Assembly: GCF_988242995.1 (NCBI RefSeq)
Contig: NZ_OZ547043.1
DNA: 64,000 nucleotides
Reading direction: 5' to 3' (one strand)
This document shows, one piece after another, positions 4,401-25,074 of the stretch (its first letter is position 1; every line of letters begins with the position of its first letter). The notes beneath the pieces are model-generated. The model had not been told where the DNA came from, made no database searches, and worked only from the letters and a program-made list of their open reading frames with translations. Position numbers and translations under genes: made by a program.

Positions 4401-4669
4401 GTGTTTTTGGTGAGGCTGGACCGGAAGCCATTATGCCATTAACACGAACTTCCGATGGTTCTCTTGGTGTCAGAGCTATTAATAGTAAAAGTGGTAATGG
4501 AGGCGGAGATATTACCTATGCCCCTGTATACCAAATCACTATTCAAAATGACGGCCAGAATGGAGAGATTGGCCCTCAGGCAATAAAAGCACTTATGGGG
4601 ATGGTTGATCAGCGGGTGCAGGGCACTCTGTTAAATATGCGACGTGATGGGGGAATGTTAAGTGGCTAA
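1436..4669 (+). CDS. Phage tail tape measure protein (lambda H-like)
   Basis: 1077-aa ORF, coiled-coil-rich N-terminal half and Gly-rich C-terminal part; sits between G/GT and M. Confidence 0.85.
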
Positions 4670-5698: not shown

Positions 5699-5702
5699 TC
5701 CC

Positions 5703-6446
5703 ATGACAGAGACAGAATCAGCGATTCTGGCGCACGCCCGGCGATGTGCGCCAGCGGAGTCGTGCGGCTTCGTGGTAAGCACGCCGGAGGGGGAAAGATA
5801 TTTCCCCTGCGTGAATATCTCCGGTGAGCCGGAGGCGTATTTCCGTATGTCGCCGGAAGACTGGCTGCAGGCAGAAATGCAGGGTGAGATTGTGGCGCTG
5901 GTCCACAGCCACCCCGGTGGTCTGCCCTGGCTGAGTGAGGCCGACCGGCGGCTGCAGGTGCAGAGTGATTTGCCGTGGTGGCTGGTCTGCCGGGGGGCGA
6001 TTCATAAGTTCCGCTGTGTGCCGCATCTCACCGGGCGGCGCTTTGAGCACGGGGTGACGGACTGTTACACGCTGTTCCGGGATGCTTATCATCTGGCGGG
6101 GATTGAGATGCCGGATTTTCATCGCGAGGATGACTGGTGGCGTCACGGTCAGAATCTCTATCTGGATAATCTGGAGGCCACAGGGCTGTATCAGGTGCCG
6201 TTGTCATCAGCACAACCGGGCGATGTGCTGCTGTGCTGTTTTGGTTCATCGGTGCCGAATCATGCCGCCATTTACTGTGGTGATGGCGAGCTGCTGCACC
6301 ATATTCCTGAACAACTGAGCAAACGAGAGAGGTATACCGACAAATGGCAGCGACGCACACACTCCCTCTGGCGTCACCGGGCATGGCGCGCATCTGCCTT
6401 TACGGGGATTTACAACGATTTGGTCGCCGCATCGACCTTCGTGTGA
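5703..6446 (+). CDS. Tail assembly protein K (NlpC/P60-JAB-like)
   Basis: Start chosen at the internal ATG (MTETESAILAHARRCAPAESCGF...), in frame with the track ORF 5661-6446 (track start is TTG); contains an HSHPGG motif. Confidence 0.8.
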   Translation: MTETESAILAHARRCAPAESCGFVVSTPEGERYFPCVNISGEPEAYFRMSPEDWLQAEMQGEIVALVHSHPGGLPWLSEADRRLQVQSDLPWWLVCRGAIHKFRCVPHLTGRRFEHGVTDCYTLFRDAYHLAGIEMPDFHREDDWWRHGQNLYLDNLEATGLYQVPLSSAQPGDVLLCCFGSSVPNHAAIYCGDGELLHHIPEQLSKRERYTDKWQRRTHSLWRHRAWRASAFTGIYNDLVAASTFV

Positions 6447-6985
6447 AAACGGGGGCTGAAGCCATCCGGGCGCTGGCCACACAGCTCCCGGCGTTTCGTC
6501 AGAAACTGAGCGACGGCTGGTATCAGGTACGGATTGCCGGGCGTGATACAGGTGAAACGGAATTATCAGCCCGTCTTAATGAACCGCTGGCAAATGGTGC
6601 TGTGATCCATATCGTGCCGCGTCTGGCAGGAGCCAAAAGTGGCGGTGTGTTTCAGGCTGTGCTGGGGGCGGCTGTTATGGCGGTTGCTATATGGATGCCG
6701 GGGGTAGGAATTATGGCGAGTAATCTGCTGTTTTCTCTCGGTGCCAGTATGACGCTTGGCGGTGTTGCACAGATGCTGGCCCCTAAACCCAAAACCCCCC
6801 GCACACAGACAACGGATAACGGCAAACAGAACACCTATTTTTCTTCACTGGATAATATGGTTGCCCAGGGCAATGTTCTGCCCGTTCTGTACGGTGAAAT
6901 GCGCGTGGGATCACGTGTGGTATCTCAGGAGATCAGCACAGCAGATGAAGGTGATGGTGGTCAGGTTGTGGTGATTGGTCGCTGA
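6344..6985 (+). CDS. Tail assembly protein I
   Basis: 213 aa starting MAATHTLPLASPGMARICLYGDLQRFGRR, lambda gpI-like; overlaps the end of K as in lambda. Confidence 0.85.
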   Translation: MAATHTLPLASPGMARICLYGDLQRFGRRIDLRVKTGAEAIRALATQLPAFRQKLSDGWYQVRIAGRDTGETELSARLNEPLANGAVIHIVPRLAGAKSGGVFQAVLGAAVMAVAIWMPGVGIMASNLLFSLGASMTLGGVAQMLAPKPKTPRTQTTDNGKQNTYFSSLDNMVAQGNVLPVLYGEMRVGSRVVSQEISTADEGDGGQVVVIGR

Positions 6986-7004
6986 TGAAAAACGTTTTAT
7001 GTGA

Positions 7005-7030
7005 AACCGCCTCCGGGCGGTTTTATCGTT
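7005..7030 (+). terminator. Terminator-like hairpin between I and J
   Basis: aaccgcc-tccg-ggcggtt stem-loop followed by a T-rich run, 16-40 nt upstream of the J start. Confidence 0.3.
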
Positions 7031-7045
7031 TATGGAGCATGACGA

Positions 7046-10000
7046 ATGGGTAAAGGCAGCAGTAAGGGGCATACCCCGCGCGAAGCGAAGGACAACCTGA
7101 AGTCCACGCAGCTGCTGAGTGTGATCGATGCCATCAGCGAAGGGCCGGTTGAAGGTCCGGTGGATGGATTAAAAAGCGTGCTGCTGAACAGTACGCCGGT
7201 GCTGGACAGTGAGGGGAATACCAATATATCCGGCGTCACGGTGGTGTTCCGGGCCGGTGAGCAGGAGCAGACTCCGCCGGAGGGATTTGAATCCTCCGGT
7301 TCCGAGACGGTGCTGGGTACGGAAGTGAAATATGACACGCCGATCACCCGCACCATCACGTCGGCAAACATCGACCGTCTGCGCTTTACCTTCGGTGTGC
7401 AGGCACTGGTGGAAACCACCTCAAAGGGGGACAGGAATCCATCGGAAGTCCGCCTGCTGGTTCAGATACAACGTAACGGTGGCTGGGTGACGGAAAAAGA
7501 CATCACCATTAAGGGTAAAACCACCTCGCAGTATCTGGCCTCAGTGGTGGTGGATAACCTGCCGCCGCGCCCGTTTAATATCCGGATGCGCAGGATGACG
7601 CCGGACAGCACCACAGACCAGCTGCAGAACAAAACGCTCTGGTCGTCATACACCGAAATCATCGATGTGAAACAGTGCTACCCGAACACGGCACTGGTCG
7701 GCGTGCAGGTGGACTCGGAGCAGTTCGGCAGCCAGCAGGTGAGCCGTAATTATCATCTGCGCGGGCGTATTCTGCAGGTGCCGTCGAACTATAACCCGCA
7801 GACGCGGCAATACAGCGGTATCTGGGACGGGACGTTTAAACCGGCATACAGCAACAACATGGCCTGGTGTCTGTGGGATATGCTGACCCATCCGCGCTAC
7901 GGCATGGGGAAGCGTCTCGGTGCGGCGGATGTGGACAAATGGGCGCTGTATGTCATCGGCCAGAATTGCGACCAGTCGGTGCCGGATGGCTTTGGTGGCA
8001 CGGAGCCTCGCATCACCTGTAATGCCTGGCTGACCACGCAGCGCAAGGCGTGGGATGTGCTCAGTGATTTCTGCTCGGCGATGCGCTGTATGCCGGTATG
8101 GAACGGGCAGACGCTGACGTTCGTGCAGGACCGGCCATCGGATAAGGTGTGGACCTATAACCGCAGTAATGTGGTGATGCCGGATGATGGCGCGCCGTTC
8201 CGCTACAGCTTCAGCGCCCTGAAGGACCGTCATAATGCCGTTGAGGTGAACTGGATTGACCCGAATAACGGCTGGGAGACGGCGACAGAGCTTGTGGAGG
8301 ACACGCAGGCCATTGCCCGTTACGGTCGTAACGTCACGAAGATGGATGCCTTTGGCTGTACCAGCCGGGGGCAGGCACACCGCGCCGGGCTGTGGCTGAT
8401 TAAAACAGAACTGCTGGAAACGCAGACCGTGGATTTCAGCGTCGGCGCAGAAGGGCTTCGCCATGTACCGGGTGATGTTATTGAAATCTGCGATGATGAC
8501 TATGCGGGGATCAGCATTGGCGGGCGCGTGCTGGCGGTGAACAGCCAGACCCGGACGCTGACGCTCGACCGTGAAATCACGCTGCCATCCTCCGGTACCA
8601 CGCTGATAAGCCTGGTTGACGGGCAGGGGAGTCCGGTCAGCGTGGAGGTTCAGTCCGTCACCGACGGCGTGAAGGTGAAAGTGAGTCGGGTTCCTGACGG
8701 CGTTGCCGGATACAGCGTGTGGGGGCTGAAGCTGCCGACGCTGCGCCAGCGCCTGTTCCGCTGTGTGAGTATCCGTGAGAACGATGACGGCACGTATGCC
8801 ATCACTGCCGTGCAGCATGTACCGGAAAAAGAAGCCATCGTGGATAACGGGGCGCACTTTGACGGCGACCAGAGCGGCACGGTGAATGGTGTCACGCCGC
8901 CAGCGGTGCAGCACCTGACCGCCGAAGTCACCGCAGACAGCGGGGAATACCAGGTGCTGGCGCGCTGGGATACGCCGAAGGTGGTGAAGGGCGTGAGCTT
9001 TATGCTTCGCCTGACCGTGGCAGCGGATGACGGCAGTGAGCGGCTGGTCAGCACGGCCCGGACGACGGAAACCACATACCGCTTCAGGCAGCTGGCTCTG
9101 GGAAATTACAGTCTGACAGTCCGGGCGGTAAATGCGTGGGGGCAGCAGGGCGATCCGGCGTCGGTATCGTTCCGGATTGCCGCACCGGCAGCGCCATCGC
9201 GGATTGAGCTGACGCCGGGCTATTTTCAGATAACCGCCACGCCGCATCTTGCGGTTTATGATCCGACGGTACAGTTTGAGTTCTGGTTCTCGGAAAATCG
9301 GATTGCGGATATCAGGCAGGTTGAAACCAGCGCGCGTTATCTTGGCACGGCGCTGTACTGGATAGCCGCCAGTATCAATATCAAACCGGGCCATGATTAT
9401 TATTTTTACGTTCGCAGTGTGAACACCGTCGGCAAATCGACATTCGTGGAGGCTGTCGGTCGGGCGAGCGATGATGCGGAAGGTTACCTGGATTTTTTCA
9501 AAGGCAAGATAACCGAATCTCATCTCGGCAAGGAGTTGCTGGAAAAAGTCGACCTGACGGAGGATAACGCCAGCAGACTGGATGAGTTTTCGAAAGAGTG
9601 GAAGGATGCCAACGATAAATGGAATGCCATGTGGGCTGTCAAAATTGAGCAGACCAAAGACGGCAAACATTATGTCGCGGGTATTGGCCTCAGCATGGAG
9701 GATACAGAGGAAGGCAAACTGAGTCAGTTTCTGGTTGCCGCCAATCGTATCGCGTTTATTGACCCGGCAAACGGGAATGAAACGCCGATGTTTGTGGCGC
9801 AGGGCAATCAGATATTCATGAACGAAGTGTTCCTGAAATATCTGACGGCTCCCACCATTACCAGCGGCGGTAATCCTCCGGCATTTTCCCTGACACCGGA
9901 CGGGCGGCTGACGGCGAAAAATGCCGATATCAGCGGTAACGTGAATGCGAACTCCGGGACGCTCAACAACGTCACGATTAACGAGAACTGCCGGGTTCTG

Positions 10001-10441
10001 GGAAAACTGTCCGCGAACCAGATTGAAGGCGATCTCGTTAAAACAGTGGGCAAAGCTTTCCCCCGTGACTCCCGGGCACCGGAGCGGTGGCCATCAGGGA
10101 CCATTACCGTCAGGGTTTATGACGATCAGCCGTTTGACCGGCAAATTGTTATTCCGGCGGTGGCATTCAGTGGCGCTAAGCATGAGAGAGAGCATACTGA
10201 TATTTACTCCTCATGCCGTCTGATAGTGCGGAAAAACGGTGCTGAAATTTATAACCGTACCGCGCTGGATAATACGCTGATTTACAGTGGCGTTATTGAT
10301 ATGCCTGCCGGTCACGGTCACATGACACTGGAGTTTTCGGTGTCAGCATGGCTGGTAAATGGCTGGTATCCCACAGCAAGTATCAGCGATTTGCTGGTTG
10401 TTGTGATGAAGAAAGCCACTGCAGGCATCACGATTAGCTGA
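7046..10441 (+). CDS. Host specificity protein J (central tail fibre / tip attachment protein)
   Basis: 1131-aa ORF; N-terminus [34 protein letters not shown] and most of the length are lambda J-like from memory; the last ~150 aa diverge. Confidence 0.9.
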
Positions 10442-10460
10442 ATTTTATAACCCAGATACG

Positions 10461-10487
10461 GGCACCAGAAATGGTGCCTTTTTTATT
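10461..10487 (+). terminator. Intrinsic terminator downstream of J
   Basis: ggcacc-agaaat-ggtgcc hairpin followed by TTTTTTATT. Confidence 0.6.
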
Positions 10488-10508
10488 GCAGAAAAGCGAG
10501 AGGTAATT

Positions 10509-11108
10509 ATGCGTAAATTATGTGCTGTTATTCTGTCCGCAGTAGTCTGGCTGGTTGCCGCTGGTACGCCAGCGAGCGCAGCAGAGCATCAGTCCACACT
10601 AAGCGCCGGGTATCTTCAGACCCATACTGATATGCCAGGCAGTGATGACCTGAAGGGCATTAACGTGAAATACCGTTATGAATTTACGGACATGCTGGGG
10701 CTGGTGACGTCATTCAGTTATGCCAATGCCAAAGATGAGCAAAGAACGCATTACAGCGATACCCGCTGGCATGAAGATTCAGTGCGTAACCGCTGGTTCA
10801 GCATGATGGCGGGGCCATCTGTACGCGTGAATGAATGGTTCAGTGCTTATGCGATGGCAGGTGTGGCTTACAGCCGTGTTTCGACGTTCTCCGGGGATTA
10901 TCTCCGCGTAACTGACAACAAGGGGAAAACGCACGATGTGCTGACCGGAAGTGATGACGATCGCCACAGCAACACGTCTCTGGCGTGGGGAGCTGGCGTG
11001 CAGTTTAACCCGACCGAATCCGTGGCCATTGATATTGCTTATGAAGGCTCCGGCAGTGGCGACTGGCGCACTGACGGTTTCATCGTGGGTGTCGGTTATA
11101 AGTTCTGA
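10509..11108 (+). CDS. lom: Lom-like outer membrane beta-barrel protein (Ail/Lom/PagC family)
   Basis: 199 aa with a signal peptide and a C-terminal aromatic residue (…VGVGYKF); lambda lom position between J and stf; bracketed by terminator hairpins. Confidence 0.8.
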   Translation: MRKLCAVILSAVVWLVAAGTPASAAEHQSTLSAGYLQTHTDMPGSDDLKGINVKYRYEFTDMLGLVTSFSYANAKDEQRTHYSDTRWHEDSVRNRWFSMMAGPSVRVNEWFSAYAMAGVAYSRVSTFSGDYLRVTDNKGKTHDVLTGSDDDRHSNTSLAWGAGVQFNPTESVAIDIAYEGSGSGDWRTDGFIVGVGYKF

Positions 11109-11134
11109 TTAGCCAGGTAACACAGTGTTATGAC

Positions 11135-11162
11135 AGCCCGCCGGTTCAGGCGGGCTTTTTTG
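11135..11162 (+). terminator. Intrinsic terminator downstream of lom
   Basis: agcccgcc-ggttcag-gcgggct hairpin followed by TTTTTTG. Confidence 0.6.
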
Positions 11163-11166
11163 TGGA

Positions 11167-13530
11167 GTGGATATGGCAGCAGTAAAAATCTCAGGTGTGC
11201 TGAAAGATGGTGCGGGAAAACCAATACAGAACTGCACTATTCAACTGAAGGCAAAGCGTAACAGCACCACGGTACTGGTGAACACGGTGGCCTCTGAAAA
11301 TCCGGATGAAGCCGGGCGTTACAGCATGGATGTTGAGTATGGTCAGTACAGCGTCACCCTGCTGGTTGAAGGTTTTCCGCCTTCACATGCCGGGACCATT
11401 ACCGTCTATGAAGGTTCCAGACCAGGTACGCTGAATGATTTTCTCGGTGCCATGACGGAAGATGATGTCATGCCGGAGGCATTGCGTCGTTTTGAGGCAA
11501 TGGTGGAAGAAGCGGCACGCAACGCCGAAGCCGCCTCTCAGAGCGCAGCAGCGGCAAAGAAATCCGAAACTGCAGCGGCATCATCGAAGAACGCGGCGAA
11601 AACCTCAGAAACAAATGCAGCTAACAGCGCACAGGCGGCAGCGTCCTCGCAGACTGCATCGGCAAACTCCGCGACAGCAGCCAAAAAATCAGAAACCAAC
11701 GCGAAAAATAGCGAGACAGCCGCAAAGACGAGCGAAACCAACGCAAAGTCCAGCCAGACGGCAGCGAAAACAAGCGAAACGAATGCCAAAGCCAGTGAAA
11801 CTGCGGCAAAAAACAGCCAGGTTGCAGCAGCCCAAAGCGAGAGCGCGGCAGCCGGTTCTGCGACTTCAGCAGCTGGATCAGCAACTGCTGCGGCTAACAG
11901 CCAGAAAGCTGCGAAGACGAGTGAAACTAACGCAAAGTCCAGCCAGACGGCAGCGAAGACCAGCGAAACGAATGCCAAAGCCAGCGAAACTGCGGCGAAA
12001 AACAGTCAGGATGCAGCAGCCCAAAGCGAGAGTGCTGCAGCTGGTTCTGCCACTGCATCAGCCAACAGTCAAAAAGCAGCAAAAACCAGTGAAACCAATG
12101 CAAAGACAAGCGAGACTGCAGCGGCGAACTCGGCGAAAGCATCCGCTGCAAGCCAGACCGCTGCAAAAGCAAGTGAAGACGCAGCCAGAGAGTATGCAAG
12201 CCAGGCAGCAGATCCGTATAAATATGTCTTACAGCCGCTGCCTGATGTGTGGATACCGTTTAACGATTCACTGGATATGATTACGGGCTTTTCGCCATCA
12301 TATAAAAAGATTGTTATTGGTGACGACGAAATAACGATGCCTGGCGACAAGATTGTTAAGTTTAAACGTGCATCGAAAGCAACCTATATTAACAAATCTG
12401 GTGTGTTGACAGAGGCTGCCATTGATGAGCCACGATTTGAACGTGATGGCCTGCTTATTGAGGGGCAAAGAACTAATCTTCTGCTTAATTCAACAAATCC
12501 ATCTAAATGGAATAAGTCAGGCAATCTGGAACTCACAGAAATATCCACGGATTCTTTTAATTTTACTTATGGGAGATTTACTGTAAAAGATACTCTTATT
12601 GGTCAGACAAGTGCTATTAATATCGTAACGATTTCTGGCAGTAAAGGGTTTGATGTCACAGGTGATGAAAAATATGTGACCATTTCATGCCGTGTAAGAA
12701 GTGATGTTGAAAATATAAGGTGTCGTTTAAGATTTGAACACCATGATGGTTATACTTACACTTTTTTGGGAGATGCTTACCTCAATTTATCAACACTTGT
12801 AATTGATAAAACTGGTACTGCTGCAGACCGTATTATTGCAAAGGCTGTAAAAGATGAGGTTACTGGTTGGATTTTCTATCAGGCTACAATTAATGCACTA
12901 GATACAGAGAGCATGATTGGTGCGATGGTTCAATACGCTCCTGTAAAAGGTTCAGGTACAGCATCTGGAGACTATCTGGATATCGCAACTCCACAAGTGG
13001 AAGGTGGATCAAGTGCTTCGTCATTTATTGTAACTGATATAACTGCAAGCACTCGCGCAAGCGATATGGTGACAGTCCCAATCAAGAATAACCTTTATAA
13101 TCTTCCTTTTACGGTTCTTTGTGAGGTACATAAGAACTGGTATAAAACGCCAAATGCAGCACCGCGTGTTTTTGATACCGGCGGTCATCAAACCGGAGCG
13201 GCTATTATTCTTGGCTTCGGTCGTTCAACAGATTACGACGGATTTCCTTATTGTGATATAGGTTTGGCTAACAGACGGGTAAACGAAAACGCATCGCTTG
13301 AAAAAATGGTTATGGGGATGCGTGTAAAGTCAGATCAGTCTACGTGCTCAGTAAGTAACGGGCGTATATCCAGCGAAAAGAAAGCCACATGGTCCTATAT
13401 TCAGAACTCCGCAATTATCCGTATTGGAGGCCAGACTACAGCCGGGTTGCGTCATTTATTTGGTCATGTCAGGAATTTCAGAATATGGCACAAGGCATTG
13501 ACTGATGCTCAGATGGGGGAGTCAATCTAA
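11167..13530 (+). CDS. stf: Side tail fibre protein (Stf-like) with a replaced C-terminal receptor-binding region
   Basis: 787 aa; N-terminal region with Ala/Ser/Thr-rich KTSETNAK-type repeats typical of Stf; the C-terminal ~400 aa are markedly AT-richer by eye and end in a motif (GHVRNFRIWHKALTDAQM) reminiscent of ConA/LamG-like lectin folds. Confidence 0.8.
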   Translation: MDMAAVKISGVLKDGAGKPIQNCTIQLKAKRNSTTVLVNTVASENPDEAGRYSMDVEYGQYSVTLLVEGFPPSHAGTITVYEGSRPGTLNDFLGAMTEDDVMPEALRRFEAMVEEAARNAEAASQSAAAAKKSETAAASSKNAAKTSETNAANSAQAAASSQTASANSATAAKKSETNAKNSETAAKTSETNAKSSQTAAKTSETNAKASETAAKNSQVAAAQSESAAAGSATSAAGSATAAANSQKAAKTSETNAKSSQTAAKTSETNAKASETAAKNSQDAAAQSESAAAGSATASANSQKAAKTSETNAKTSETAAANSAKASAASQTAAKASEDAAREYASQAADPYKYVLQPLPDVWIPFNDSLDMITGFSPSYKKIVIGDDEITMPGDKIVKFKRASKATYINKSGVLTEAAIDEPRFERDGLLIEGQRTNLLLNSTNPSKWNKSGNLELTEISTDSFNFTYGRFTVKDTLIGQTSAINIVTISGSKGFDVTGDEKYVTISCRVRSDVENIRCRLRFEHHDGYTYTFLGDAYLNLSTLVIDKTGTAADRIIAKAVKDEVTGWIFYQATINALDTESMIGAMVQYAPVKGSGTASGDYLDIATPQVEGGSSASSFIVTDITASTRASDMVTVPIKNNLYNLPFTVLCEVHKNWYKTPNAAPRVFDTGGHQTGAAIILGFGRSTDYDGFPYCDIGLANRRVNENASLEKMVMGMRVKSDQSTCSVSNGRISSEKKATWSYIQNSAIIRIGGQTTAGLRHLFGHVRNFRIWHKALTDAQMGESI

Positions 13531-13811
13531 TGAAAGATTTAACACTCAAATTTGCAGACAGGGCCGACTTTTCGGCCTTTATGGATAGCATTGGCTATTA
13601 TGATGACGAGTCGATGCAGGATGATATTCTTATTGACGTGATAGGTAACGTGTACAAAGAAACCGGAGAACTGACTGAAGATGGCGAACCGGTATGTGTT
13701 AAGGAAGACGGATATTTTGTAAACGTGCGCATCATTAATGATGCAAAAAAATCGTCAATATTCGATGAATACGCGGTTGTAGTTGAACATCAACTTCGTG
13801 GCTGGATGTGA
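13530..13811 (+). CDS. Hypothetical acidic 93-aa protein; possible tail-fibre chaperone
   Basis: ATG overlaps the stf stop (TAATG), suggesting translational coupling; no family recognised. Confidence 0.4.
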   Translation: MKDLTLKFADRADFSAFMDSIGYYDDESMQDDILIDVIGNVYKETGELTEDGEPVCVKEDGYFVNVRIINDAKKSSIFDEYAVVVEHQLRGWM

Positions 13812-13820
13812 GGGAGACAA

Positions 13821-14525
13821 ATGGCTACATCGACAGTAATTCCAGGAGACATCACCACGTTAAAGGGAGATGTCAGTAAAGCCAAGGAAGATATTTCCTC
13901 AATTAACGGAAAAGTATCAACGCTTCAGGCTGATATGACCAGTGCAAAGCAGGATATCAGCACCAGATACACAAAAACTGAAGTTGATAATAAGCTGAAA
14001 AACAAACTGGAAGTGAACGCTCTGGAAAGCGGTCGTTATGGTGGAGATTTTTACCCGTTGACTGGCCGTGAAGCGTTTTATTTGTGGGGATTGGGCACGA
14101 CTACAGCGGCGGCAAACCTTTATCTTAATCCTGACCCCGCAATTTCGTCTGTGCTGCGGTCAACATCGTCTATCCGCTATAAACATTCAGTAGAGACAAT
14201 AGATTCAGAGCACGCCGAACTCATTTTCAGGATGCGCCCTGTGTGGTACAGGTCACAATGCGAAAATGACAGGCGTGACTGGGGATTCTACGGATTGATT
14301 GCCGAGGAAGTAGGAGAAATTGCCCCTCAGTTTGTACACTGGCGACCAGCTAACGAAGATGATGCACCGGAAGCTATTTCCAGCAATGGCCTTGTTGCCG
14401 AAGGTGTAATGTACGAACGTCTGGTTGTTCCACTGATTCACCATATCCAGAAGCTGACTGAAAGAGTTGATGAACTTGAGTCAGAATTAAAGTTGTTATC
14501 CGTTTCCCGAAGCGATATCGGATAA
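13821..14525 (+). CDS. Short fibre-like protein: N-terminal coiled coil plus C-terminal intramolecular-chaperone (peptidase S74-like) domain
   Basis: 234 aa; heptad-repeat N-terminus; C-terminal region (RPVWYRSQ...WGFYGLIAEEVGEIAPQFV...MYERLVVPLIHHIQKLTERVDELESEL) matches, from memory, the self-cleaving chaperone domain of endosialidase and T5 L-shaped tail fibres. Confidence 0.5.
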   Translation: MATSTVIPGDITTLKGDVSKAKEDISSINGKVSTLQADMTSAKQDISTRYTKTEVDNKLKNKLEVNALESGRYGGDFYPLTGREAFYLWGLGTTTAAANLYLNPDPAISSVLRSTSSIRYKHSVETIDSEHAELIFRMRPVWYRSQCENDRRDWGFYGLIAEEVGEIAPQFVHWRPANEDDAPEAISSNGLVAEGVMYERLVVPLIHHIQKLTERVDELESELKLLSVSRSDIG

Positions 14526-14535
14526 AGGAGGAGTA

Positions 14536-14829
14536 ATGGATATAACACCTTTCCTTCATGCGCTTTGTGCTGTGGCTGCGCAGCTACTGATTGGTCTTTT
14601 TACCGGGAACTGGGCTTACGGGGCGATAGCCGGTTGTACGTTCTTCATTGCGCGTGAACACACCCAGGCAGAATATCGCTGGATCGAAATGTTCGGGCAT
14701 GGCAAGCGAATGAATATGCCGTGGTGGGGCGGTTTTGATCCGCGCGCGTGGGATGTGGCAAGCCTGATGGATTTTGCTGTGCCGGTGGTGGCGTGTCTGC
14801 TGGTCTGGCTGTTGGTTAATCGTGGGTGA
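14536..14829 (+). CDS. Hypothetical small membrane protein
   Basis: 97 aa with two to three hydrophobic segments; GC-rich coding sequence; function unknown. Confidence 0.35.
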   Translation: MDITPFLHALCAVAAQLLIGLFTGNWAYGAIAGCTFFIAREHTQAEYRWIEMFGHGKRMNMPWWGGFDPRAWDVASLMDFAVPVVACLLVWLLVNRG

Positions 14830-14839
14830 AAAAAGGTGA

Positions 14840-14968
14840 GCTGTATATGCAACGGAGGAAGAAACCCCGTTGCTGGAAGCCTGGAAAAAGTATCGGATGC
14901 TGCTGAACCGTGTTGATACATCAACTGCACCTGATATTGAGTGGCCTACGAACCCTGTCAGGGAGTAA
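14840..14968 (+). pseudogene. tfa: 3' remnant of a tail fibre assembly gene (tfa), lacking start and N-terminal part
   Basis: Frame-2 translation gives ...[36 protein letters not shown], which matches the conserved C-terminus of lambda/P2-type Tfa proteins as I recall it; an in-frame stop lies immediately upstream (14837-14839). Confidence 0.55.
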
Positions 14969-15180
14969 TCATTGGGATTATGCCGCAGAAACGTTGTATG
15001 CAATAACGTTCTGCGGTTGGCTGATGCACTTTCGAGAGTGCATGTATTGAATTATTTCCAGCTATTATCGATTTTACGTATTTTTTGCATGAGAGAATTT
15101 GTACCTCCTCCCAACAACGACCTTCCATGACTTTCCGGACTTCTGTGGGCCAGCGGACGATGCTGCCCTCGGATGTTGTG

Positions 15181-16038
15181 CTAATTGGGTGATGACAAAT
15201 CCTGTGTATGGGTGTTTCCCTTTGTGCGTGCGTTGATGCTGGTAACGGTGAACGTCATGATGAACACAACCGCGAATAAGACGACAATCGTCGGAGCTGG
15301 TGCACTGTCGATAAAAAAGGACAACCAGACACCAGTCATTGACACTATTACCGATATGCCAATCGCCAGTAGGAGCGCAATATGAAAGCGTTGTGTCAGG
15401 AGTACCGCAATGGCGCCAGGCGCAATGAGCAGAGAAATGGAGAGAATGATACCTACCGCTTTCAGCGTCGCCACAATGGTCAGAGAGACCATGCACAGCA
15501 GCCCATAATGCAGACATCTCGTATGCAAACCGCTTACCTGCGCCTGTTGATAATCAAAGCTGAACAGCAAAAAATCCCGCCATTTTACGCTAATAACAAG
15601 TGTAACCAGCCCGGCAATAATCACCGTCTGGATTATATCGCCGATGGTTACCCCGAGCATGTCGCCGAAAAGAATATGGTCAAGATGTACGTCTGGTTTG
15701 ACTGCAATATACAAGATCAGACCTGCGGCAAACATGCCAGAAAAAACAATCCCCATCACTGTATCTTGCTTGATTCGGCTGTTGTCTTTCAGGTATCCCG
15801 TCGCCACCGCGCAGAATACTCCGGCGACGAATGCCCCTGTAGCCAGAGGTAACCCCAGAATCCAGGCAAGCACGATGCCAGGAAAAACCGCATGACTCAT
15901 CGCGTCACCCATCAGTGCCCAACCTTTCAGGACCAGAAAGACCGACAGCAGCGCACAGGGTATGGAAACTACCAGTGAAATCAGCAGTGCGTGACTCATA
16001 AAGGTGAACTGCAGTGGCTCCAGTAATAATGCCATCAT
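15181..16038 (-). CDS. sitD: Mn/Fe ABC transporter permease SitD
   Basis: 285-aa polytopic membrane protein of the ABC-3 (ZnuB/MntB) type; last gene of a four-gene operon with overlapping stop/start codons. Confidence 0.8.
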   Translation of the reverse strand: MMALLLEPLQFTFMSHALLISLVVSIPCALLSVFLVLKGWALMGDAMSHAVFPGIVLAWILGLPLATGAFVAGVFCAVATGYLKDNSRIKQDTVMGIVFSGMFAAGLILYIAVKPDVHLDHILFGDMLGVTIGDIIQTVIIAGLVTLVISVKWRDFLLFSFDYQQAQVSGLHTRCLHYGLLCMVSLTIVATLKAVGIILSISLLIAPGAIAVLLTQRFHIALLLAIGISVIVSMTGVWLSFFIDSAPAPTIVVLFAVVFIMTFTVTSINARTKGNTHTQDLSSPN

Positions 16039-16892
16039 GAGCGATCCTCCAGCGCTTTATGCGCACGCCGACGATTTGCCAAAAGCCCATGGGTGGGCGC
16101 AAATACAAATGCTAAAAGAAACAGCAGTGTCTGCGCCACCACGATGATTCCACCTGTCGCGCCGTCCAGAAAGTAACTGACCCACGCGCCGAGGAAACTG
16201 GTTACACTGCCAATAGTTACAGCAATTATGAGCAGGCGGGGAAAACGATCGGTTAACAACCATGCTGTTGCACCGGGAGTCACCACCAGACAGATCACCA
16301 GAAAGGCACCAACCGTTTGCAGCGCCGCAACGGTCGAAACCGACAGCAGGGTGAAGAAGAGGATTTTTAATCTGCCCGGATGCAATCCAATAGCACGAGC
16401 GTGATTCTCGTCGAAAAAGGTCACCATAAGATCTTTCCATTTGAAAAAAAGCACGATGATCGAGAGAATGCCAATGATAGTGAGTTGCAGGATATCCGCC
16501 GGATCGATTGCCAGAATATTGCCCAGGACGATGGTCTGAATGTTCACGGATGTCGGGTTCAATGACACCATAAACAGCCCCAGGCCAAAAAAGGAGGAGA
16601 AGATCAGGCCGATGATGGCATCTTCTTTTAAGCGAGTGCGTTGGTTAAGAAACAGCATGCTGCCCGCTGCCAGTCCGCCGGAAAAGAAGGCTCCCAGAGA
16701 AAACGGAAGCCCCAGCATATATGCCCCCGCAACACCCGGGACAATAGAGTGCGACAGCGCATCGCCAATCAGCGACCAGCCTTTTAGCATCAGATAGCAT
16801 GACAGGAAAGCGCAGAGACCGCCGACCATCGCCGAGACCCACATCGCATTGAGCATATATTCATAGCTGAAGGGTTCCAGTAGCACGTTCAT
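16035..16892 (-). CDS. sitC: Mn/Fe ABC transporter permease SitC
   Basis: 285-aa polytopic membrane protein; overlaps sitB and sitD by 4 nt each. Confidence 0.8.
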
Positions 16893-17716
16893 CTTGCTTC
16901 CCCCTGCACCGCTGACGGTCGATGTGCCACAAAAGGGTGTTCATCGTCAGTAATAATGCTTTCTTCCGAGCCGTTAAGTGTGACATGGCGCAGTACGCCG
17001 CTAAAAGCCAGCTCCAGGTTCTCGGCTGTAAAAGTGGTGTCTGTCGGCCCGCTTGCCAGGACGGTGCCTTTGACCATGACCGTATAATCGCAAAATGTCG
17101 TGACTGAGCCGAGATTGTGCGTTGAGACAAGCATCGTCTTGCCTTCCGCGCGTAACTCCCTCAACAGGCTGATGATTTTCGCTTCGGTTTTCACATCAAC
17201 GCCCGTAAAAGGTTCATCCAGCAGGATCACATCACCCTGCTGTGCAATCGCTCTCGCCAGAAAGACGCGTTTCTTTTGTCCACCGGAAAGCTCGCCGATT
17301 TGTCGATGGCGAAAATCCACCATATCGACACGTTCCAGCGCATCGGTGACAATCTGACGATCCCTCTTTTTGGCTATACGCAACATACCCATGTGCCCAT
17401 AGCGGCCCATCATCACCACATCTTCCACTAGTACAGGAAATGACCAGTCAACCTCTTCTGACTGAGGGACGTAGGCAACCAGGTTTTTCTGTAGCGCCTG
17501 TCGCGTGGGAATACCCAGAACAGATATCTTTCCGCTGGTCAGACGCACAAATCCCATAATCGCTTTAAACAACGTCGATTTTCCGGAACCGTTTACCCCA
17601 ACCAGAGCGGCAATAGATCCACTTGGTACTGTGAAGGATGCATCGCGCAGTGCTGTGTGCCCGTTACGCCAGGTGACAGTAACATCATTAACGACAATGC
17701 CCGCAGATTGCATCAT
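16889..17716 (-). CDS. sitB: Mn/Fe ABC transporter ATP-binding protein SitB
   Basis: Walker [10 protein letters not shown], signature LSGGQKKR, Walker B ILLDEP. Confidence 0.85.
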
Positions 17717-18630
17717 TATTTCTCCCTTTTCCCGGCTTTAATTCCCTGTACCAGCGTACTGGTAGTAACCTTCAGAAGGTCGATATACGTAGGTACCGGG
17801 CCGTTTTCTGTGCTCAGGGAATCGACATAGAGTACACCGCCGTAGTGCGCGCCGGTTTCACGCGCAACCTGACGCGCTGGTTTATCGGAAATCGTACTCT
17901 CGCTAAAGACTGCCGGGATATGATTTTTCTTCACCATATCAACAACCTTACGTACCTGCTGCGGCGTGCCTTGTTGATCGGCATTAATCGGCCACAGATA
18001 AAGCTCTTTTAGCCCCAAATCGCGTGCGAGATAAGAAAAAGCCCCTTCACTGGTGACCATCCATCGCTGATTCTCAGGGAGTTCAGCAATCTGCTTACGC
18101 AGGGGGGCAAGGGTTTGGGTAATCTTGGCTTTATAAGTATCGGCATTACGTTGGTAGGTTTGTGCATTTGCCGGATCGTATTTTATCAACGCATCACGAA
18201 TATTATCGACGTAAATCAGAGCATTATCTGGCGACATCCAGGCATGGGGGTTAGGTTTGCCCTCATAGGGGCCTTCAGTGATCCCTACTGGCGTCACACC
18301 CGAAGAGACAATTACTTCTGGAACCCCATTAAGATGCTGGTAAAAGCGTTGGAACCACAATTCCAGATTCATACCATTGGCGAGAATCAGTTGTGCCCCC
18401 TGCGCACGTTTAATATCGCCAGGGGTAGGCTGATACTCATGAATTTCTGCACCGGGCTTGGTTATGGATGAGACTTCTGCAGCATCTCCAGCCACGTTTT
18501 TGGCCATATCTGCGATGATGGTAAATGTTGTAATGACCTTGAATTTTTCAGTTGCACTCGCCTGAAATGCGATCGAGCAGGTGAGGGCGAGGCACCCCAA
18601 GAGCATGGTTACTTTTTTTATTGAGTACAT
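17716..18630 (-). CDS. sitA: Periplasmic metal-binding protein SitA (cluster A-I substrate-binding protein)
   Basis: 304 aa with a signal peptide; first gene of the operon; MntR and Fur boxes lie upstream. Confidence 0.85.
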
Positions 18631-18662
18631 AATTTAGTACCTATAGTGAGCAAAATTAGAAC

Positions 18663-18684
18663 AAACATAGCAACGGCTATGTTT
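18663..18684 (-). promoter_or_regulatory. MntR-box palindrome upstream of sitA
   Basis: AAACATAGCAACGGCTATGTTT, a perfect 9-bp inverted repeat matching the MntR operator type, ~33 bp upstream of the sitA start. Confidence 0.6.
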
Positions 18685-18703
18685 TATAGCACAACCTATA
18701 CAA

Positions 18704-18722
18704 AATGAAAATGATTATCATT
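18704..18722 (-). promoter_or_regulatory. Fur box upstream of sitA
   Basis: AATGAAAATGATTATCATT; about 16 of 19 positions match GATAATGATAATCATTATC. Confidence 0.55.
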
Positions 18723-18840
18723 AGCAGCTTTGGGGCCCAAAACAGGGATTAGGTTGTTTCCTGCTGGCGACGCGTTATTGAGGAAAAAAGTAAGGCAGCT
18801 AGTAGGCTTTGAAATGACTTGATGAGGAAAATTGTTGATG

Positions 18841-18892
18841 GCAAAAATGGGGCAAAGCGCTGCAAAAGGGGCAAAAAAGGGGCAAAAAAAGA
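18841..18892. repeat. Phased G-GCAAAA A-tract repeats (five copies at ~10-11 bp spacing); predicted intrinsically bent DNA
   Basis: gcaaaaatggggcaaagcgctgcaaaaggggcaaaaaaggggcaaaaaaag, with repeat starts at about 18841, 18852, 18862, 18871 and 18882. Confidence 0.5.
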
Positions 18893-19184
18893 GTGGGTTA
18901 TCGTAGCTTATTGTTGTCGCTGATGATATTTAACACATTGAAAAATAAGTAAAATACTTATGAGTCAGAGAGTTGTGATTTTTGCCCTTACTTGTTCAGG
19001 TTGTATTGTTCTTTCTTACTAAATTCTTGATTTTGCGACATTTAAAAGCGACTCAATTCGTTATATGGCATCAGAAGAGTATGCGTCATGCCGGAACGCC
19101 CAGCATAAGAAATCTGATATAAAAACTGTGGCGTGTATGGTACGGATTAGAGGGGAAAATGTCAGCACATTTGCGAAATGAATC

Positions 19185-19210
19185 AAAAAGCCCGCAGGAA
19201 TGTGCGGGCG
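19185..19210 (-). terminator. Intrinsic terminator downstream of uspF
   Basis: On the minus strand, a gcccgca-cattcc-tgcgggc hairpin followed by TTTTTG. Confidence 0.55.
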
Positions 19211-19216
19211 TTAGTG

Positions 19217-19732
<516 letters not shown>

Positions 19733-19759
19733 TTAGATCAAAGGAGGAAGAATAAGCAG

Positions 19760-19783
19760 AAAAAGCCCGCCATAACAGCGGGC
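19760..19783 (-). terminator. Intrinsic terminator downstream of ompN
   Basis: On the minus strand, a gcccgc-tgttat-ggcgggc hairpin followed by TTTTTC. Confidence 0.55.
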
Positions 19784-19791
19784 AGGAGGAT

Positions 19792-20910
19792 TTAGAACTG
19801 ATAAACCAGACCTAAAGCGACAATATCATCGGTAGAGATGCCGTTGGCAGCGTAGAAGCTGTCATCTTCATCCAACAGGTTGATTTTATAGTCAACATAA
19901 GTGGACATGTTTTTATTGAAATAGTAAGTCGCGCCAACATCGGCGTATTTAACCAGATCTTTATCACCGTCGGTACCGACCAAATCCTTGCCTTTAGACA
20001 TCAGGAAAGAGACTGCCGGACGCAGCCCAAAATCGAACTGATACTGCGCAGTAACTTCAAAGTTCTGGGTTTTGTTGGCAATCGTATTTGTTGAATCACC
20101 GTAAGGTGTCATGTTACGCGTTTCAGAATACATGGTCGCCAGGTAGATATTGTTAGCATCGTATTTTGCCCCGGCAGTCCAGGCATCTGCCTTATCGCCT
20201 TTTGCGGTAGAGAATTCAGCCTGCTGGTTAGTGCGATCGGAACTGGTATAGGCGGCACCAAAACTCATGCCCATACCTAAGTCGTAGGTAGTAGAGATGC
20301 CAAGACCGTCGCCATTGGCGTTCTTAATGTTTCGATCACCACCGTTTGCGGTACCTTCTTGCTCATGGGTGACCTGGTTTTCATTCGCACCCTGGTACTG
20401 TAACGCAAAATTCAGACCATCAACCAGACCGAAGAAATCAGTATTACGATAGGTTGCTACGCCATTGGCTCGACCGGTCATATAGTTATCGGCTTTGGTA
20501 TAAGAGTCACCACCGAATTCCGGTAGCATATCGGTCCAGCCTTCGATGTCGTACATTACGCCATAATTACGACCATAGTCGAATGAACCCAGGTCACCAA
20601 ATTTCAGACCGGCAAAAGCAAGACGAGTCCAGGAATCACCTTTATCACCTTCAGAGCCATTAGCCTGCACGTTATATTCCCACTGGCCATACCCAACCAG
20701 TTGATCCGTGATTTGCGTTTCACCCTTAAAACCAAAACGCACATAAGTTTGATCACCATCACTATTGGTATTATCAGAAAAATAATGCAGGCCATCAACT
20801 TTGCCATACAGATCTAATTTGTTGCCGTCTTTATTATAAACTTCGGCTGCATGTGCAGCACCTGCGGCGAGCAGGGCAGGAATTAAAAGTGCCAGTACTT
20901 TGCTTTTCAT
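19792..20910 (-). CDS. ompN: Outer membrane porin OmpN (OmpC/OmpF family)
   Basis: 372 aa; signal peptide [21 protein letters not shown], porin-like body, C-terminal ...GLVYQF. Confidence 0.8.
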
Positions 20911-21138
20911 TGAATAAATCCTTTAGTTATTTTATTTGCCTTTTCATCCCCATTTTGGGGAGTGAAAGCATCCTAAAGGAGAAGTTCAGTTAGCCGATAA
21001 ATATCATTTGTTACGCCTTAAGTAAAACCTTAATCAAATAATTCTTCTGAAATGATAATAAGTCTGGTGAATGTATTGAAGATAATACATACAAAATAAA
21101 AATTATACTTTTAATTTGCTATACGTTATTCTGCGCGG

Positions 21139-21248
21139 GTTATATGCCTTTATTGTCACAGATTTTATTTTCTGTTGGGCCATTGCGTTGCTACTGATTT
21201 TCCAACAAATAATGAGACAAGCCCGAACAGTCGTTCGGGCTTTTTTTT
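21139..21248 (+). ncRNA. micC: MicC small regulatory RNA
   Basis: Starts GTTATATGCCTTTATTGTCACAGATTTTATTTTCTGTTGGGCCATTGC and ends in a GCCCGAAC-AGTC-GTTCGGGC hairpin plus T8; matches the MicC sequence I recall and its known location between ompN and ydbK. Confidence 0.8.
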
Positions 21249-21276
21249 AGAATTGGATAATCCTTATCCAGTGCAT

Positions 21277-24200
21277 TTAATCGGTGTTGCTTTTTTCCGC
21301 TTTTCCGGCCATTTGTGCCAGGAAGTCATAGCGTTTTTGCAAATCAGCTGCAGCATCTTTCCATAACTGTTCTGCCACTTCTGGCTGCTGCGAATTCAGA
21401 CGACGGAAACGCTGCTCGTGAAGTAACGTTTCTTCCAGTGCTTCTGACGGCGGGCGTGAATCCAGTGCCAGCGGCAGTTTGCCTTCATCGGCTCGACGTG
21501 GATCGAAGCGATATAGCGGCCAGAAGCCGGTGGCAGTGAGTTGGCGCATCTGGTCGTGGCTGAGTGCCAGATCGTAACCATGCTCTTCACACGGGCTATA
21601 AGCAATGATCAGCGATGGCCCCGGATACGCTTCCGCTTCCTGAATCGCTTTCACCGTCTGGTTCAGCTGCGCGCCGAGAGAAATCTGCGCCACATAAACA
21701 TGACCGTACATCATCATACTGACGCCAAGATCTTTACGCGCTTTACGTTTGCCGTGCTCGCCAAACTTAGTCACCGCGCCAAGCGGCGTGGCTTTTGACG
21801 CCTGACCACCGGTATTGGAATAGCATTGCGTATCCAGCACCAGAATGTTGACGTTTTCCGTCAAACTCAATACATGATCCAGACCGCCAAAGCCGATATC
21901 GTAAGCCCAGCCGTCGCCACCAATCAGCCAGATTGATTTTTCCACCAGTGCATCTGCGTCACGTAGCAGTTCATGTGCTTCGGCAACATCGTTGAGTTGC
22001 TGGCGTAAAGCTGCGACCTGTTCTCGACGAACCTCTGGCGTGGCGTCTGATTTCAACGCAGTCAGTAATTCCGCCGGGATTTTATCGGCAAATTGATCCA
22101 GCAGACGCAGCACGCGGACACGGTGTTGATCGACCGTCAGGCGGAAACCAAGGCCAAATTCGGCATTATCTTCAAATAGAGAGTTCGCCCATGCCGGCCC
22201 GCGACCGTTGGTATCGGTGGTATACGGTGTAGAGGGCAGGTTACCGCCATAAATTGAAGAACAGCCGGTGGCGTTAGCGATCAACATCCGGTCGCCATAG
22301 AGCTGAGTCAGCAATTTAATATACGGCGTCTCGCCACAACCGGAGCAAGCACCGGAATATTCAAACAGCGGTGTAATCAGCTGCGATGTACGAATATCAA
22401 TACGCTCCAGTTTGCTACGGTCGATTTCTGGCAGGTTGAGGAAGAAATCGTAATTGATTTTCTCTTCTTCGACATGTTCCAGCCGCGACATCATATTGAT
22501 GGCTTTAATCTCTGGATTCTGACGGTCTTTCGCCGGGCAAACTTCGACGCACAGGTTACAACCGGTGCAATCTTCCGGAGCCACCTGCAAGACATATTTC
22601 TGCCCGCGCATATCACGCGATTTCACATCCAGCGAATGCAGGCTGGCAGGGGCGTTTTCCATCGCTTCAGGCGGCACCACTTTTGCGCGAATAGCTGAGT
22701 GTGGGCAAGCGGCGACGCAGTGGTTACATTGGGTACAGAGTTCCTCTTTCCAGATGGGGATCTCTTCGGCGATATTGCGTTTTTCCCAGCGCGTGGTGCC
22801 CATCGGCCAGGTGCCGTCTGGCGGCAGCGCCGAAACGGGGAGGGCATCACCAAGCCCGGCGAGCATCGCCGCGGTTACGGTTTTCACGAAATCAGGGGCG
22901 GCATCGGAAACCACTGGCGGTCGATTGGCGCTGTGCGGATTAACCGGCTGCAGCGGAACTTCTTCTACGGATTCACGTGCCAGCGCCAGAGCCTGCCAGT
23001 TGCGTTCCACCAGATCCTGACCTTTGCTACTGTAACTTTTGGCAATCGCACCCTGCAATTCTGCGAGGGCGCTATCGCCAGGCAGAATTTGCGTAAGATG
23101 GAAAAAAGCCATCTGCATGACGGTATTAATACGGGCCGCCAGGCCACATTCGCGGGCGATTTTCGCCGCGTTAATCACATAGAAGCGCGCTTTTTTCTGG
23201 TTTAACACGGCCTGAACTTCTTGCGGCAAGCGCGACCACACTTCATCTGCGCTGTACGGCGTGTTGAGCAGGAAAATGCCGCAAGGTTTTAAACGCTCAG
23301 CCATCTGATATTTATCGATAAACTGCAACTGGTGGCAGCCAACAAAATCAGCCTGGGAAATGAGATAAGCGGAACGAATCGGCTGTTCGCTCACGCGAAG
23401 GTGAGAAACCGTCAGGCCGCCCGCCTTTTTGGAGTCGTAAACAAAATAGCCCTGTGCGTACCACGGCGTGGAATTACCGATAATCTTGATATTGTTTTTG
23501 GTCGCGGAAACGCTGCCATCGCTACCAAGGCCATAAAACAAGGCTTCAAGTTTCGCCGAGTTTGGCAGGGTGTTTTCCGGCAACGGCAGTGACAGATTGG
23601 TCACATCATCGTAAATACCAACCGTAAAGCGCGCTTTCGGTTTAGCCGCGTTGAGCTCGGCAAATACCGCCAGTACACAGTCCGGGCCAAATTCTTTGGA
23701 TGAAAGACCATAGCGCCCACCAATGACACGGGGCAGGGTTTCGCGCTCGCCATTATTAAAGGCTTCTGCCAGTGCGGTCATCACATCCAGATAGAGCGGT
23801 TCAGCCTGGGCACCGGGTTCTTTGGTTCTGTCCAGTACCGCCACGCTGCGTACGGATCCCGGCAGAGCTTGTAGCAAGTGTTTGGCGGAGAAGGGACGGT
23901 ACAGGCGAACTTTCAGCACGCCGACTTTTTCGCCACGGGTTAGCAATTCATCAACCACTTCTTCACAGGTGCCAATGGCAGAGCCCATCAGGATAATCAC
24001 CCGTTCCGCTTGCGGATGCCCGTAATACTCAAACGGCTGATACTGACGACCTGTCGCGGCAGAGAAATCATTCATCGCCTGTTCAACATGGTCGTAAACT
24101 GCGTTGTACCACGGGTTGGTGGCTTCACGTGACTGGAAATAGGTGTCCGGGTTAGCCGAGGTACCACGAATCACCGGATGCTCCGGATTCAGCGCGCGGG

Positions 24201-24801: not shown

Positions 24802-25074
24802 ATGACACCCTTACATTGCGCAAATGAGGGGCGCACGAAATTGCTGCGCGCCCAGTAGTAATCCTTCAATTTTAGCAAATGGCTTTCTTCTGCATTTTCG
24901 CTTTTGTGTCCCCCTCATCAGCGTAATGAATGTTTTGATCAAACAGAGGGCAAAAAAATAGCCATAAAAAAGTAAAAATGCGGGGCAACGCGCAGGACAG
25001 CTCTCGACGCCGCCCTCTGTGCTGCCTATTATTTATGGCGGTGTCGTTTGGCTTGAAGATCAGAGGAAGAAAAG

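Follow-up and report, generated by a model that had tools for sequence, protein, structure and literature searches.

The sitABCD operon, reported as a virulence factor that improves the import of manganese and iron (PMC9928086), is already described as a cargo of lambdoid prophages with Fur and MntR sites (PMC6969025, PMC9928086, PMC2808357). Among lambda phages of the infant gut, 70% carry sitABCD, with a Fur box reported upstream of the phage-borne operon (PMC6969025). In a lysogen of the LF82 prophage Perceval, sit is transcribed above the prophage background (PMC9928086), and prophage 042p3 of EAEC 042 carries sit as cargo at its tail end (PMC2808357). In Salmonella, sitABCD is repressed by both Fur and MntR, as stated in a study that summarises earlier work on the regulation of the operon and repeats the reporter experiment (PMC8970401). 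This published work is the source, in what follows, for the expression of sit in a lysogen, for its carriage by phages that form plaques and for the dual repression (in Salmonella).

The locus studied here belongs to a stretch of 64,000 nucleotides (the window; NCBI RefSeq assembly GCF_988242995.1, contig NZ_OZ547043.1), where positions 15181-18725 hold, with very high probability, sitABCD and its promoter, encoding a Mn2+/Fe2+ importer and forming the final transcription unit of a Rac-like prophage inserted in ttcA of an E. coli chromosome. The gene content is directly visible: the open reading frame list gives four intact, translationally coupled frames on the minus strand, exactly where the earlier note had reported a complete four-gene ABC-3 transporter opposite to the tail genes. 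The first one, sitA (17716-18630), codes for a ZnuA-type periplasmic Mn/Fe-binding protein of 304 aa, followed by sitB (16889-17716; ABC ATPase, 275 aa), sitC (16035-16892; ABC-3 permease, 285 aa) and sitD (15181-16038; second ABC-3 permease, 285 aa), the latter a paralogue of SitC, the two proteins aligning over 288 columns with 103 identical positions. These genes overlap one another by 1-4 nt, with 1 nt shared by the sitB start and the sitA stop, and a 4-nt ATGA shared by sitC and sitB. The four lengths (304/275/285/285 aa) equal those of RefSeq SitA-D in near-identical genomes, the operon is 98-100% identical to RefSeq-annotated SitABCD, at the DNA level including CFT073 and UTI89, and EFF60 shows 100% identity across 15181-18722.

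At the protein level, SitA starts with an N-terminal signal peptide, whose cleavage by inspection is probable after ASA26, and matches the Pfam family ZnuA (PF01297, E 2.7e-86), the Yersinia protein YfeA (5uxs, E 9e-125) and the solved N-domain of Salmonella SitA (5jg7), with 129 of 159 residues identical (81%). Residues H64, H129, E195 and D270 stand opposite identical YfeA residues in the alignment, and we take them, from the YfeA structure, to be the metal ligands. SitB carries the Walker A, LSGGQ signature and Walker B motifs, and is the only one of the four to score above a curated NCBIfam cutoff (PRK15056, manganese/iron ABC transporter ATP-binding protein; 589.6 bits versus a cutoff of 393); SitA, SitC and SitD match related Mn/Zn families below the cutoffs, which reflects the lack of a dedicated model for them and not non-membership. 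SitC matches the Pfam family ABC-3 (PF00950, E 4.3e-83), and PHROG families exist for the Sit proteins, with both SitC and SitD matching phrog_4782. The RefSeq names and identities, the likeness to Salmonella SitA and the ZnuA/ABC-3 matches bear out the previous naming of these genes as the sit module, which is a cluster A-I importer (ZnuA/ABC-3 type) of the SitABCD/YfeABCD group, with a transport activity towards Mn2+/Fe2+ predicted from its sequence.

As for its genomic context, sitABCD lies within the boundaries of the prophage and is the last cargo (moron) of a Rac-like element in ttcA, a position that is also directly observed. The window covers the right half of this lambdoid prophage (1-18991, plus strand), with ydaY, the tape measure, the tail tip genes, lom, the side tail fibre and sit; the left half, int included, lies outside. 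A remnant of the tail fibre assembly gene tfa (14849-14968, plus strand) keeps the C-terminal 39 codons; it matches the 3′ end of K-12 tfaR at 90% identity, and the annotations of the relatives L001 and L004 list it as a partial tail fibre assembly protein. Beyond sitA, the P′ arm of attR (about 18826-18991) is homologous to the final ~150 bp of Rac as annotated in K-12 and holds three GGGGCAAA repeats (at 18849, 18868 and 18879), which are possibly arm-type sites for the integrase. The prophage/chromosome junction follows at the att core, TTGTTCAGGTTGTATTGTTCTTTCTT (18992-19017), identical to the 26 bp common to attL and attR of K-12 Rac. It is overlapped by ttcC (18991-19041, minus strand), the displaced original 5′ end of ttcA, which encodes MSQNQEFSKKEQYNLNK before a stop and corresponds to the K-12 pseudogene of the same name.

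The earlier note had the operon riding on a lambdoid phage, between a tfa remnant and the chromosomal uspF. The Rac-like element at the ttcA site and the tfa remnant agree with this description, and only the direct adjacency to uspF fails, since the sitA start lies about 590 bp away from that gene, an interval occupied by the promoter, the P′ arm, the att core and the remnant of ttcC. The attR end, whose location by comparison with a prophage-free strain had been proposed, could be placed at the att core through K-12 Rac and empty-site strains: three of the latter (ttcA adjoining uspF), among the matches listed, match the window from 18992 onward only. A chromosomal paralogue of the transporter in prophage-free strains, named in advance as counter-evidence, did not appear in the one sampled empty-site strain whose annotation was read, which shows no sit between ttcA and uspF. 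Moreover, the sitA-attR-uspF junction is found in 494 genomes, with the adjacent tail-fibre genes also present in 475 of them, and the best match among complete E. coli genomes to positions 1-19300 of the window reaches 97.4% identity over 94% of its length.

Whether the element still moves is a separate matter. A real, if smaller, probability attaches to the idea that the prophage is a defective, grounded remnant, and that sit arrived by phage but is now effectively fixed and no longer mobilised. The truncation of tfa to 39 codons right beside sit could mean local decay, the K-12 Rac element at the same site is cryptic, in some relatives the tail region contains inserted IS110, IS200 or IS3 elements, and a match to 80% or more of positions 1-19300 is found in only 157 genomes, as against the 494 with the sit-uspF junction. 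Against such a loss of mobility, the genes from the tape measure to the side tail fibre are uninterrupted reading frames in the window, and the close relative strain 1428 carries a full-length Rac-like prophage ending in sit with complete head, tail, lysis and replication modules (the stretch compared ends before int). In any case, a grounded prophage would affect mobility only and is compatible with the function proposed here for the operon.

The promoter region holds both of the operator-like elements claimed for it by the earlier note. The first one, AAACATAGCAACGGCTATGTTT, occurs a single time in the window (18663-18684), is absent from 100 shuffled sequences and forms a perfect 9-bp inverted repeat (9+4+9) with a non-palindromic 4-bp spacer, that is, AAACATAGC-N4-GCTATGTTT. 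Both half-sites are identical to those of the palindrome upstream of K-12 mntH, an established MntR operator. In 10 further loci, sit is preceded by an unaltered copy of the window palindrome; these loci comprise Rac-type and icd-type prophages, phage 1H12, the SPF_0923 record and IMG/VR contigs. The second element is a Fur box, GCTAATGATAATCATTTTC (18707-18725, minus strand), which agrees with the consensus GATAATGATAATCATTATC at 17 of 19 positions, a match that no shuffle attained at up to 3 mismatches, and which extends 3 bp past the end coordinate 18722 given previously. The 1H12 and CFT073 alleles have this box without any difference, and the plasmid allele shows slight changes in it.

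A sigma-70 promoter (18683-18711, minus strand) can be tentatively read by eye between these elements, with a putative -35 hexamer TTTTCA (18706-18711) falling within the Fur box, a spacer of 17 bp and a putative -10 hexamer TATAAA (18683-18688) sharing 2 bp with the MntR box. A consensus promoter scan did not flag this proposed promoter, because its rule demands a T at position 6 of the -10 hexamer. A terminator-like hairpin called by the same scan at the MntR palindrome is an artefact of the palindrome itself. Downstream of sitD, neither the terminator scan nor folding revealed an intrinsic terminator; the folded region shows two hairpins without U-tracts (z = -1.9), which are not convincing as a terminator. 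An Rfam scan of positions 14000-22000 at gathering thresholds detected no riboswitch or small RNA in the sit leader, its sole match being MicC near ompN.

It is very improbable that the palindrome and the Fur-like site are fortuitous or vestigial, with sit being constitutive or under phage control. Nothing specific speaks for such a reading beyond the plasmid allele, with one half-site change in its MntR box and two changes in its Fur box, whereas the shuffles put the chance expectation at zero for both sites, which are exact across Rac-type, icd-type and free-phage alleles while their flanks diverge. The arrangement also copies that of K-12 mntH, with a Fur box and then the palindrome in the same order, and the dual repression has been demonstrated for the Salmonella orthologue (PMC8970401).

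The unit shared with other phage contexts is a cassette of 3655 bp (about 3.65 kb; 15161-18815), while against a ColV-type plasmid the span is 15152-18845; these limits come from BLAST breakpoints against phage 1H12, the icd-site prophage of CFT073 and plasmid pSF-468-1. A search around the cassette found no direct or inverted repeats and no transposon ends, so that in this context it bears no sign of a mobility of its own. The base composition of the cassette (about 51% GC, E. coli-like) gives no foreign mark. Phage records that contain the operon number 27; among them are ev207, the Lambda_ev series and 1H12, in which sit is placed between the tail fibre genes and int. IMG/VR viral contigs carry the operon too, and the phage genome records with the cassette differ in their integrases and att sites. 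Judging by the record names and the report of sit in that paper, 1H12, ev207 and the Lambda_ev records appear to be the plaque-isolated infant-gut phages of PMC6969025; carriage of sit in infectious phage genomes thus holds for relatives, and not for this very prophage. The least probable of all the readings considered, by which sit would be a chromosomal island abutting the prophage (outside attR or native near uspF) instead of phage cargo, could draw on its outermost position among the prophage genes, some 360 bp from the att core, and on its E. coli-like GC content, but is dismissed by the Rac-homologous P′ arm and att core that separate sit from uspF, by the listed empty-site strains matching from 18992 only (the one examined being without sit there) and by the occurrence of the same cassette inside phage records with different integrases and att sites.

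Carriage by temperate phages would explain the patchy but wide distribution of sitABCD, which is found in 44% of the complete E. coli genomes and occupies several loci as well as plasmids; 2743 sit places were found in these genomes, 1061 of them plasmid-borne. A further and rather unlikely conjecture, less probable than the grounding of the prophage, is that the plasmid-spread copy descends from a Rac-type prophage copy like the present one. Beyond the cassette boundaries of the other phages, the plasmid copy and the window have flanks of 9 bp and about 30 bp in common, and the shared flank on the promoter side enters sequence that is loosely homologous also to the arm of the sit-less K-12 Rac. 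If true, such a descent would document the passage of a virulence-associated operon from phage to plasmid.

The most likely functional picture for the prophage-borne operon starts with the export of SitA to the periplasm, where it would bind the metal through a His-His-Glu-Asp site and hand it to the SitC/SitD permease pair, with the SitB ATPase supplying the energy. Transcription would start at a promoter belonging to the operon itself and run antisense to the phage tail genes, so that expression of sit in the lysogen could do without phage late transcription. In this strain, two repressors, Fe2+-Fur over the -35 region and Mn2+-MntR over the -10/+1 region, would each act on the promoter, and this double control would leave sit on when iron and manganese run short, for example in host tissue or during oxidative stress. 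The operon can be regarded as a phage-borne gene set that arrives pre-wired into the Fur and MntR circuits of its host.

Compared with known systems, the operon of the window has orthologues in the four-gene Mn/Fe ABC importers SitABCD of Salmonella enterica (SPI-1-linked) and YfeABCD of Yersinia pestis, which are chromosomal or island-borne in those species and are not known to reside on a lambdoid prophage. Its closest likeness is to the moron of the infant-gut lambdoid coliphages, such as Escherichia phage 1H12 (NC_049947.1; Mathieu et al. 2020, PMC6969025), and of prophage Perceval of the AIEC strain LF82 (PMC9928086), which have the same 3655-bp cassette at 98% identity, placed in antisense orientation after the tail fibre genes and before att/int, with the same Fur and MntR boxes. 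These phages differ from the window in their backbone and integration site, and 1H12 also in its integrase, the present element being Rac-like and located at ttcA; moreover, a 136-bp segment (14999-15134 of the window) is found on the other side of the cassette. As in the window, the cassette is found at the lambdoid tail end, beside attR, in the icd-site prophage of the UPEC strain CFT073 and in EAEC 042p3 (PMC2808357); the CFT073 prophage shares 98% identity with the window but uses icd, and not ttcA, as its att site. Plasmid pSF-468-1 carries the same operon at about 97% identity, flanked however by a Tn3 remnant and IS1 and next to the iuc (aerobactin) genes instead of phage genes. Finally, K-12 Rac shares with the window the integration site, the att core, the homology of the P′ arm and the ttcC remnant, as well as a ydaY/tape-measure segment that is 99.9% identical, but it is cryptic, has lost most of its structural genes and has tfaR-pinR-ynaE-ynaM where the present element has the tfa remnant and sitDCBA. 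To these described cases, the window adds one more well-delimited example of sit, at the Rac/ttcA site.

The sit genes lie as four successive minus-strand ORFs (window 15181-18630) of 285, 285, 275 and 304 aa, in order of coordinates from sitD to sitA. Each stop codon overlaps the next start, by 4, 4 and 1 nt, as is characteristic of an operon with translational coupling. The first gene encodes SitA (17716-18630), a periplasmic binding protein of the ZnuA fold (Pfam PF01297, E 2.7e-86), and the second SitB (16889-17716), which matches the NCBIfam model 'manganese/iron ABC transporter ATP-binding protein' with 589.6 bits against a curated cutoff of 393 and contains the Walker A, LSGGQ and Walker B motifs. 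The third, SitC (16035-16892), is an ABC-3 permease (PF00950, E 4.3e-83), and the fourth, SitD (15181-16038), is its paralogue, both belonging to one of the PHROG families that exist for Sit proteins. SitA matches Yersinia pestis YfeA with E 9e-125, and its residues H64, H129, E195 and D270, identical to the aligned YfeA residues, are those we take, from the YfeA structure, to be the His-His-Glu-Asp metal ligands. These matches bear out the complete four-gene transporter that the earlier note had proposed, as does the comparison with Salmonella, whose SitA, over an N-terminal domain of solved structure (PDB 5jg7), shares 129 of 159 residues (81%) with the window's SitA. By megablast, the 3.5-kb operon is present in 2,383 of 5,426 complete E. 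coli genomes, at 1,682 chromosomal and 1,061 plasmid places, and RefSeq names the genes sitA, sitB, sitC and sitD in all full-length matches among the matches listed; the operons of CFT073 and UTI89 are 98% identical to the window, and that of EFF60 100%.

The prophage locus is, as the comparison with K-12 shows, that of Rac, which in K-12 sits between ttcA and uspF. Only the right half of this lambdoid prophage falls in the window (1-18991), the left half lying beyond it, with the gene order ydaY, tape measure, tail tip genes, lom and side tail fibre; over the ydaY/tape-measure segment, K-12 and the window agree at 99.9% identity. The tfa remnant already recognized from the sequence (14849-14968) carries that annotation in near-identical genomes and is homologous to the 3′ end of K-12 tfaR, and where the window prophage has sit, K-12 Rac has tfaR-pinR-ynaE-ynaM. 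Homology with K-12 restarts at about 18826-18839, ~150 bp short of the point where Rac ends on the right in the K-12 annotation, and then extends across uspF, ompN and ydbK. Past the sitA promoter come the phage P′ arm, with three GGGGCAAA repeats, then the att core (18992-19017), 26 bp common to K-12 attL and attR, and then the chromosome, with the displaced 5′ end of ttcA, ttcC, at 18991-19041. Because the P′ arm and the core separate the sitA promoter from the chromosome, the operon lies inside the prophage, as expected of prophage cargo. A chromosomal transporter would instead be present at this position in prophage-free strains; among the matches listed, at least three strains have ttcA directly adjoining uspF and match the window only from 18992 on, and the annotation read for one of them gives dbpA-ttcA-uspF-ompN there, without sit. 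A total of 494 genomes have the sitA-attR-uspF junction, 475 of them together with the adjoining tail fibre genes, and strain 1428, a close relative, has a Rac-like prophage of full length that comprises head, tail, lysis, trkG and replication modules and ends in sit.

The K+ transporter gene trkG of such sit-bearing Rac-like prophages (33844-35301 in the strain 1428 locus), cited for K-12 Rac as well, makes sit and trkG two independent cation-transport morons on a single phage. The GGGGCAAA arm repeats differ in copy number among strains, and JNEC-KY178 has ~40-50 bp extra in this part of the P′ arm (24840-24890 of its locus, L001, versus window 18840-18889), apparently a duplication, with a small hypothetical ORF annotated close by. 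In the side tail fibre protein (11167-13530, plus strand), a long stretch of tandem repeats rich in alanine and serine (…KTSETNAKSSQTAAKTSETNAKASETAAKNSQ…) is the most variable part among relatives (~83-93% identity, with gaps). On the chromosomal side, the porin allele next to uspF is divergent, since the uspF-ompN-ydbK stretch is only ~92% identical to K-12; the counterpart of this 372-aa porin (19792-20910, minus strand) is annotated 'porin OmpC' in JNEC-KY178 and 'OmpN' in other strains. The MicC sRNA (Rfam RF00121, 124 bits; 21136-21256, plus strand) lies, as in K-12, between the porin and pyruvate:flavodoxin oxidoreductase genes. A 169-aa ORF (33159-33668, minus strand), which by its sequence looks like an IS200/IS605-family TnpA, lies between an upstream 500-aa ORF, identified as feaB from its counterpart in L001, and a downstream 769-aa ORF (tynA), within an insertion (~33055-33757) relative to JNEC-KY178, which lacks it and is elsewhere 98% identical.

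In the sit promoter, both operators read in the earlier note hold up: the perfect MntR-type palindrome AAACATAGCAACGGCTATGTTT (18663-18684) occurs once in the window and never in shuffled sequence, and the Fur box GCTAATGATAATCATTTTC (18707-18725, operon strand), extending 3 bp beyond the right end of the stretch given in the earlier note, matches 17 of 19 consensus positions, again with none in shuffles. The sole further Fur-consensus match at 3 mismatches, GATGATGATCATCATCATC (50391-50409), is a simple trinucleotide-repeat palindrome that probably falls in coding sequence. Inspection suggests a plausible sigma-70 promoter, with -35 TTTTCA (18706-18711), a 17-bp spacer and -10 TATAAA (18683-18688), missing from the automatic scan because of its rule on the last -10 base. 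The candidate -35 lies inside the Fur box and the candidate -10 overlaps the palindrome, and Fur and MntR would each occlude RNA polymerase there. Downstream of sitD, the promoter/terminator scan and folding found no intrinsic terminator. Upstream of K-12 mntH, a partial Fur-box core TGATAATCATTCTC (read by eye) is followed by the palindrome AAACATAGCAAAGGCTATGTTT, the established MntR operator of mntH; the sit promoter has its elements in this order too, with both 9-bp half-sites identical, and departs from mntH only in the 4-bp spacer and in how far apart the two elements lie. In Salmonella, experiments have established that Fur and MntR both repress sitABCD (PMC8970401). The two boxes are identical among the Rac-type, phage 1H12 and CFT073 copies, with divergent sequence further upstream, and the exact palindrome precedes sit in 10 other loci compared, including IMG/VR viral contigs; the plasmid allele differs from the window by one change in an MntR half-site and two in the Fur box.

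The common sit cassette measures 3,655 bp (15161-18815) and is found in 27 phage records, several of which are apparently from the infant-gut phages isolated from plaques in PMC6969025. In 1H12 it lies between tail fibre genes and a different integrase, in CFT073 in a prophage whose attR carries a partial icd gene as marker, and on plasmid pSF-468-1 in a somewhat longer version (15152-18845) flanked by a Tn3 remnant and IS1 and adjoining the aerobactin genes. A search for repeats flanking the cassette found none, and the best explanation for its passage from phage to phage is ordinary mosaic recombination in the interval bounded by the tail fibre genes and att; the flanks faintly hint that the plasmid copies may descend from a Rac-type copy. 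In the window, sitD is followed downstream by a 136-bp segment with two hairpins (14999-15134), and the counterparts of this segment (85% identity) lie beyond the sitA promoter in 1H12 (23630-23761 of its locus, L003) and CFT073 (11630-11761 of L007), that is, on the opposite side, and the cassette is therefore joined to it on different sides in different phages. IMG/VR viral contigs encode identical SitA as well as relatives at ~60% identity, the latter in four-gene operons of other lineages: L015 (UViG_2654588048_000013) has a near-perfect Fur box, TGATAATCATTATC, in the region 5890-5935 without the MntR palindrome, and the GC-rich upstream region of L016 shows neither box obviously. The record 'Salmonella phage SPF_0923' (ON032529.1), which matches window 14848 to at least 19300 at 99% identity, contains uspF, ompN and a partial pyruvate-flavodoxin oxidoreductase gene past sit (11883-15120), and, rather than the genome of a virion, looks like a predicted prophage region that runs on into chromosome of E. 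coli type. The sections on sit in the phage papers, which mention a Fur box and no MntR box, report sitABCD on 70% of infant-stool lambda-type coliphages, always with the Fur box upstream (Mathieu et al. 2020, PMC6969025), and list it among the transcribed morons of the LF82 prophage Perceval (Misson et al. 2023, PMC9928086). The phage-borne arrangement is already published; the earlier observation is confirmed and its interpretation supported, and what is added here is the precise delimitation of this known arrangement at the Rac/ttcA site.
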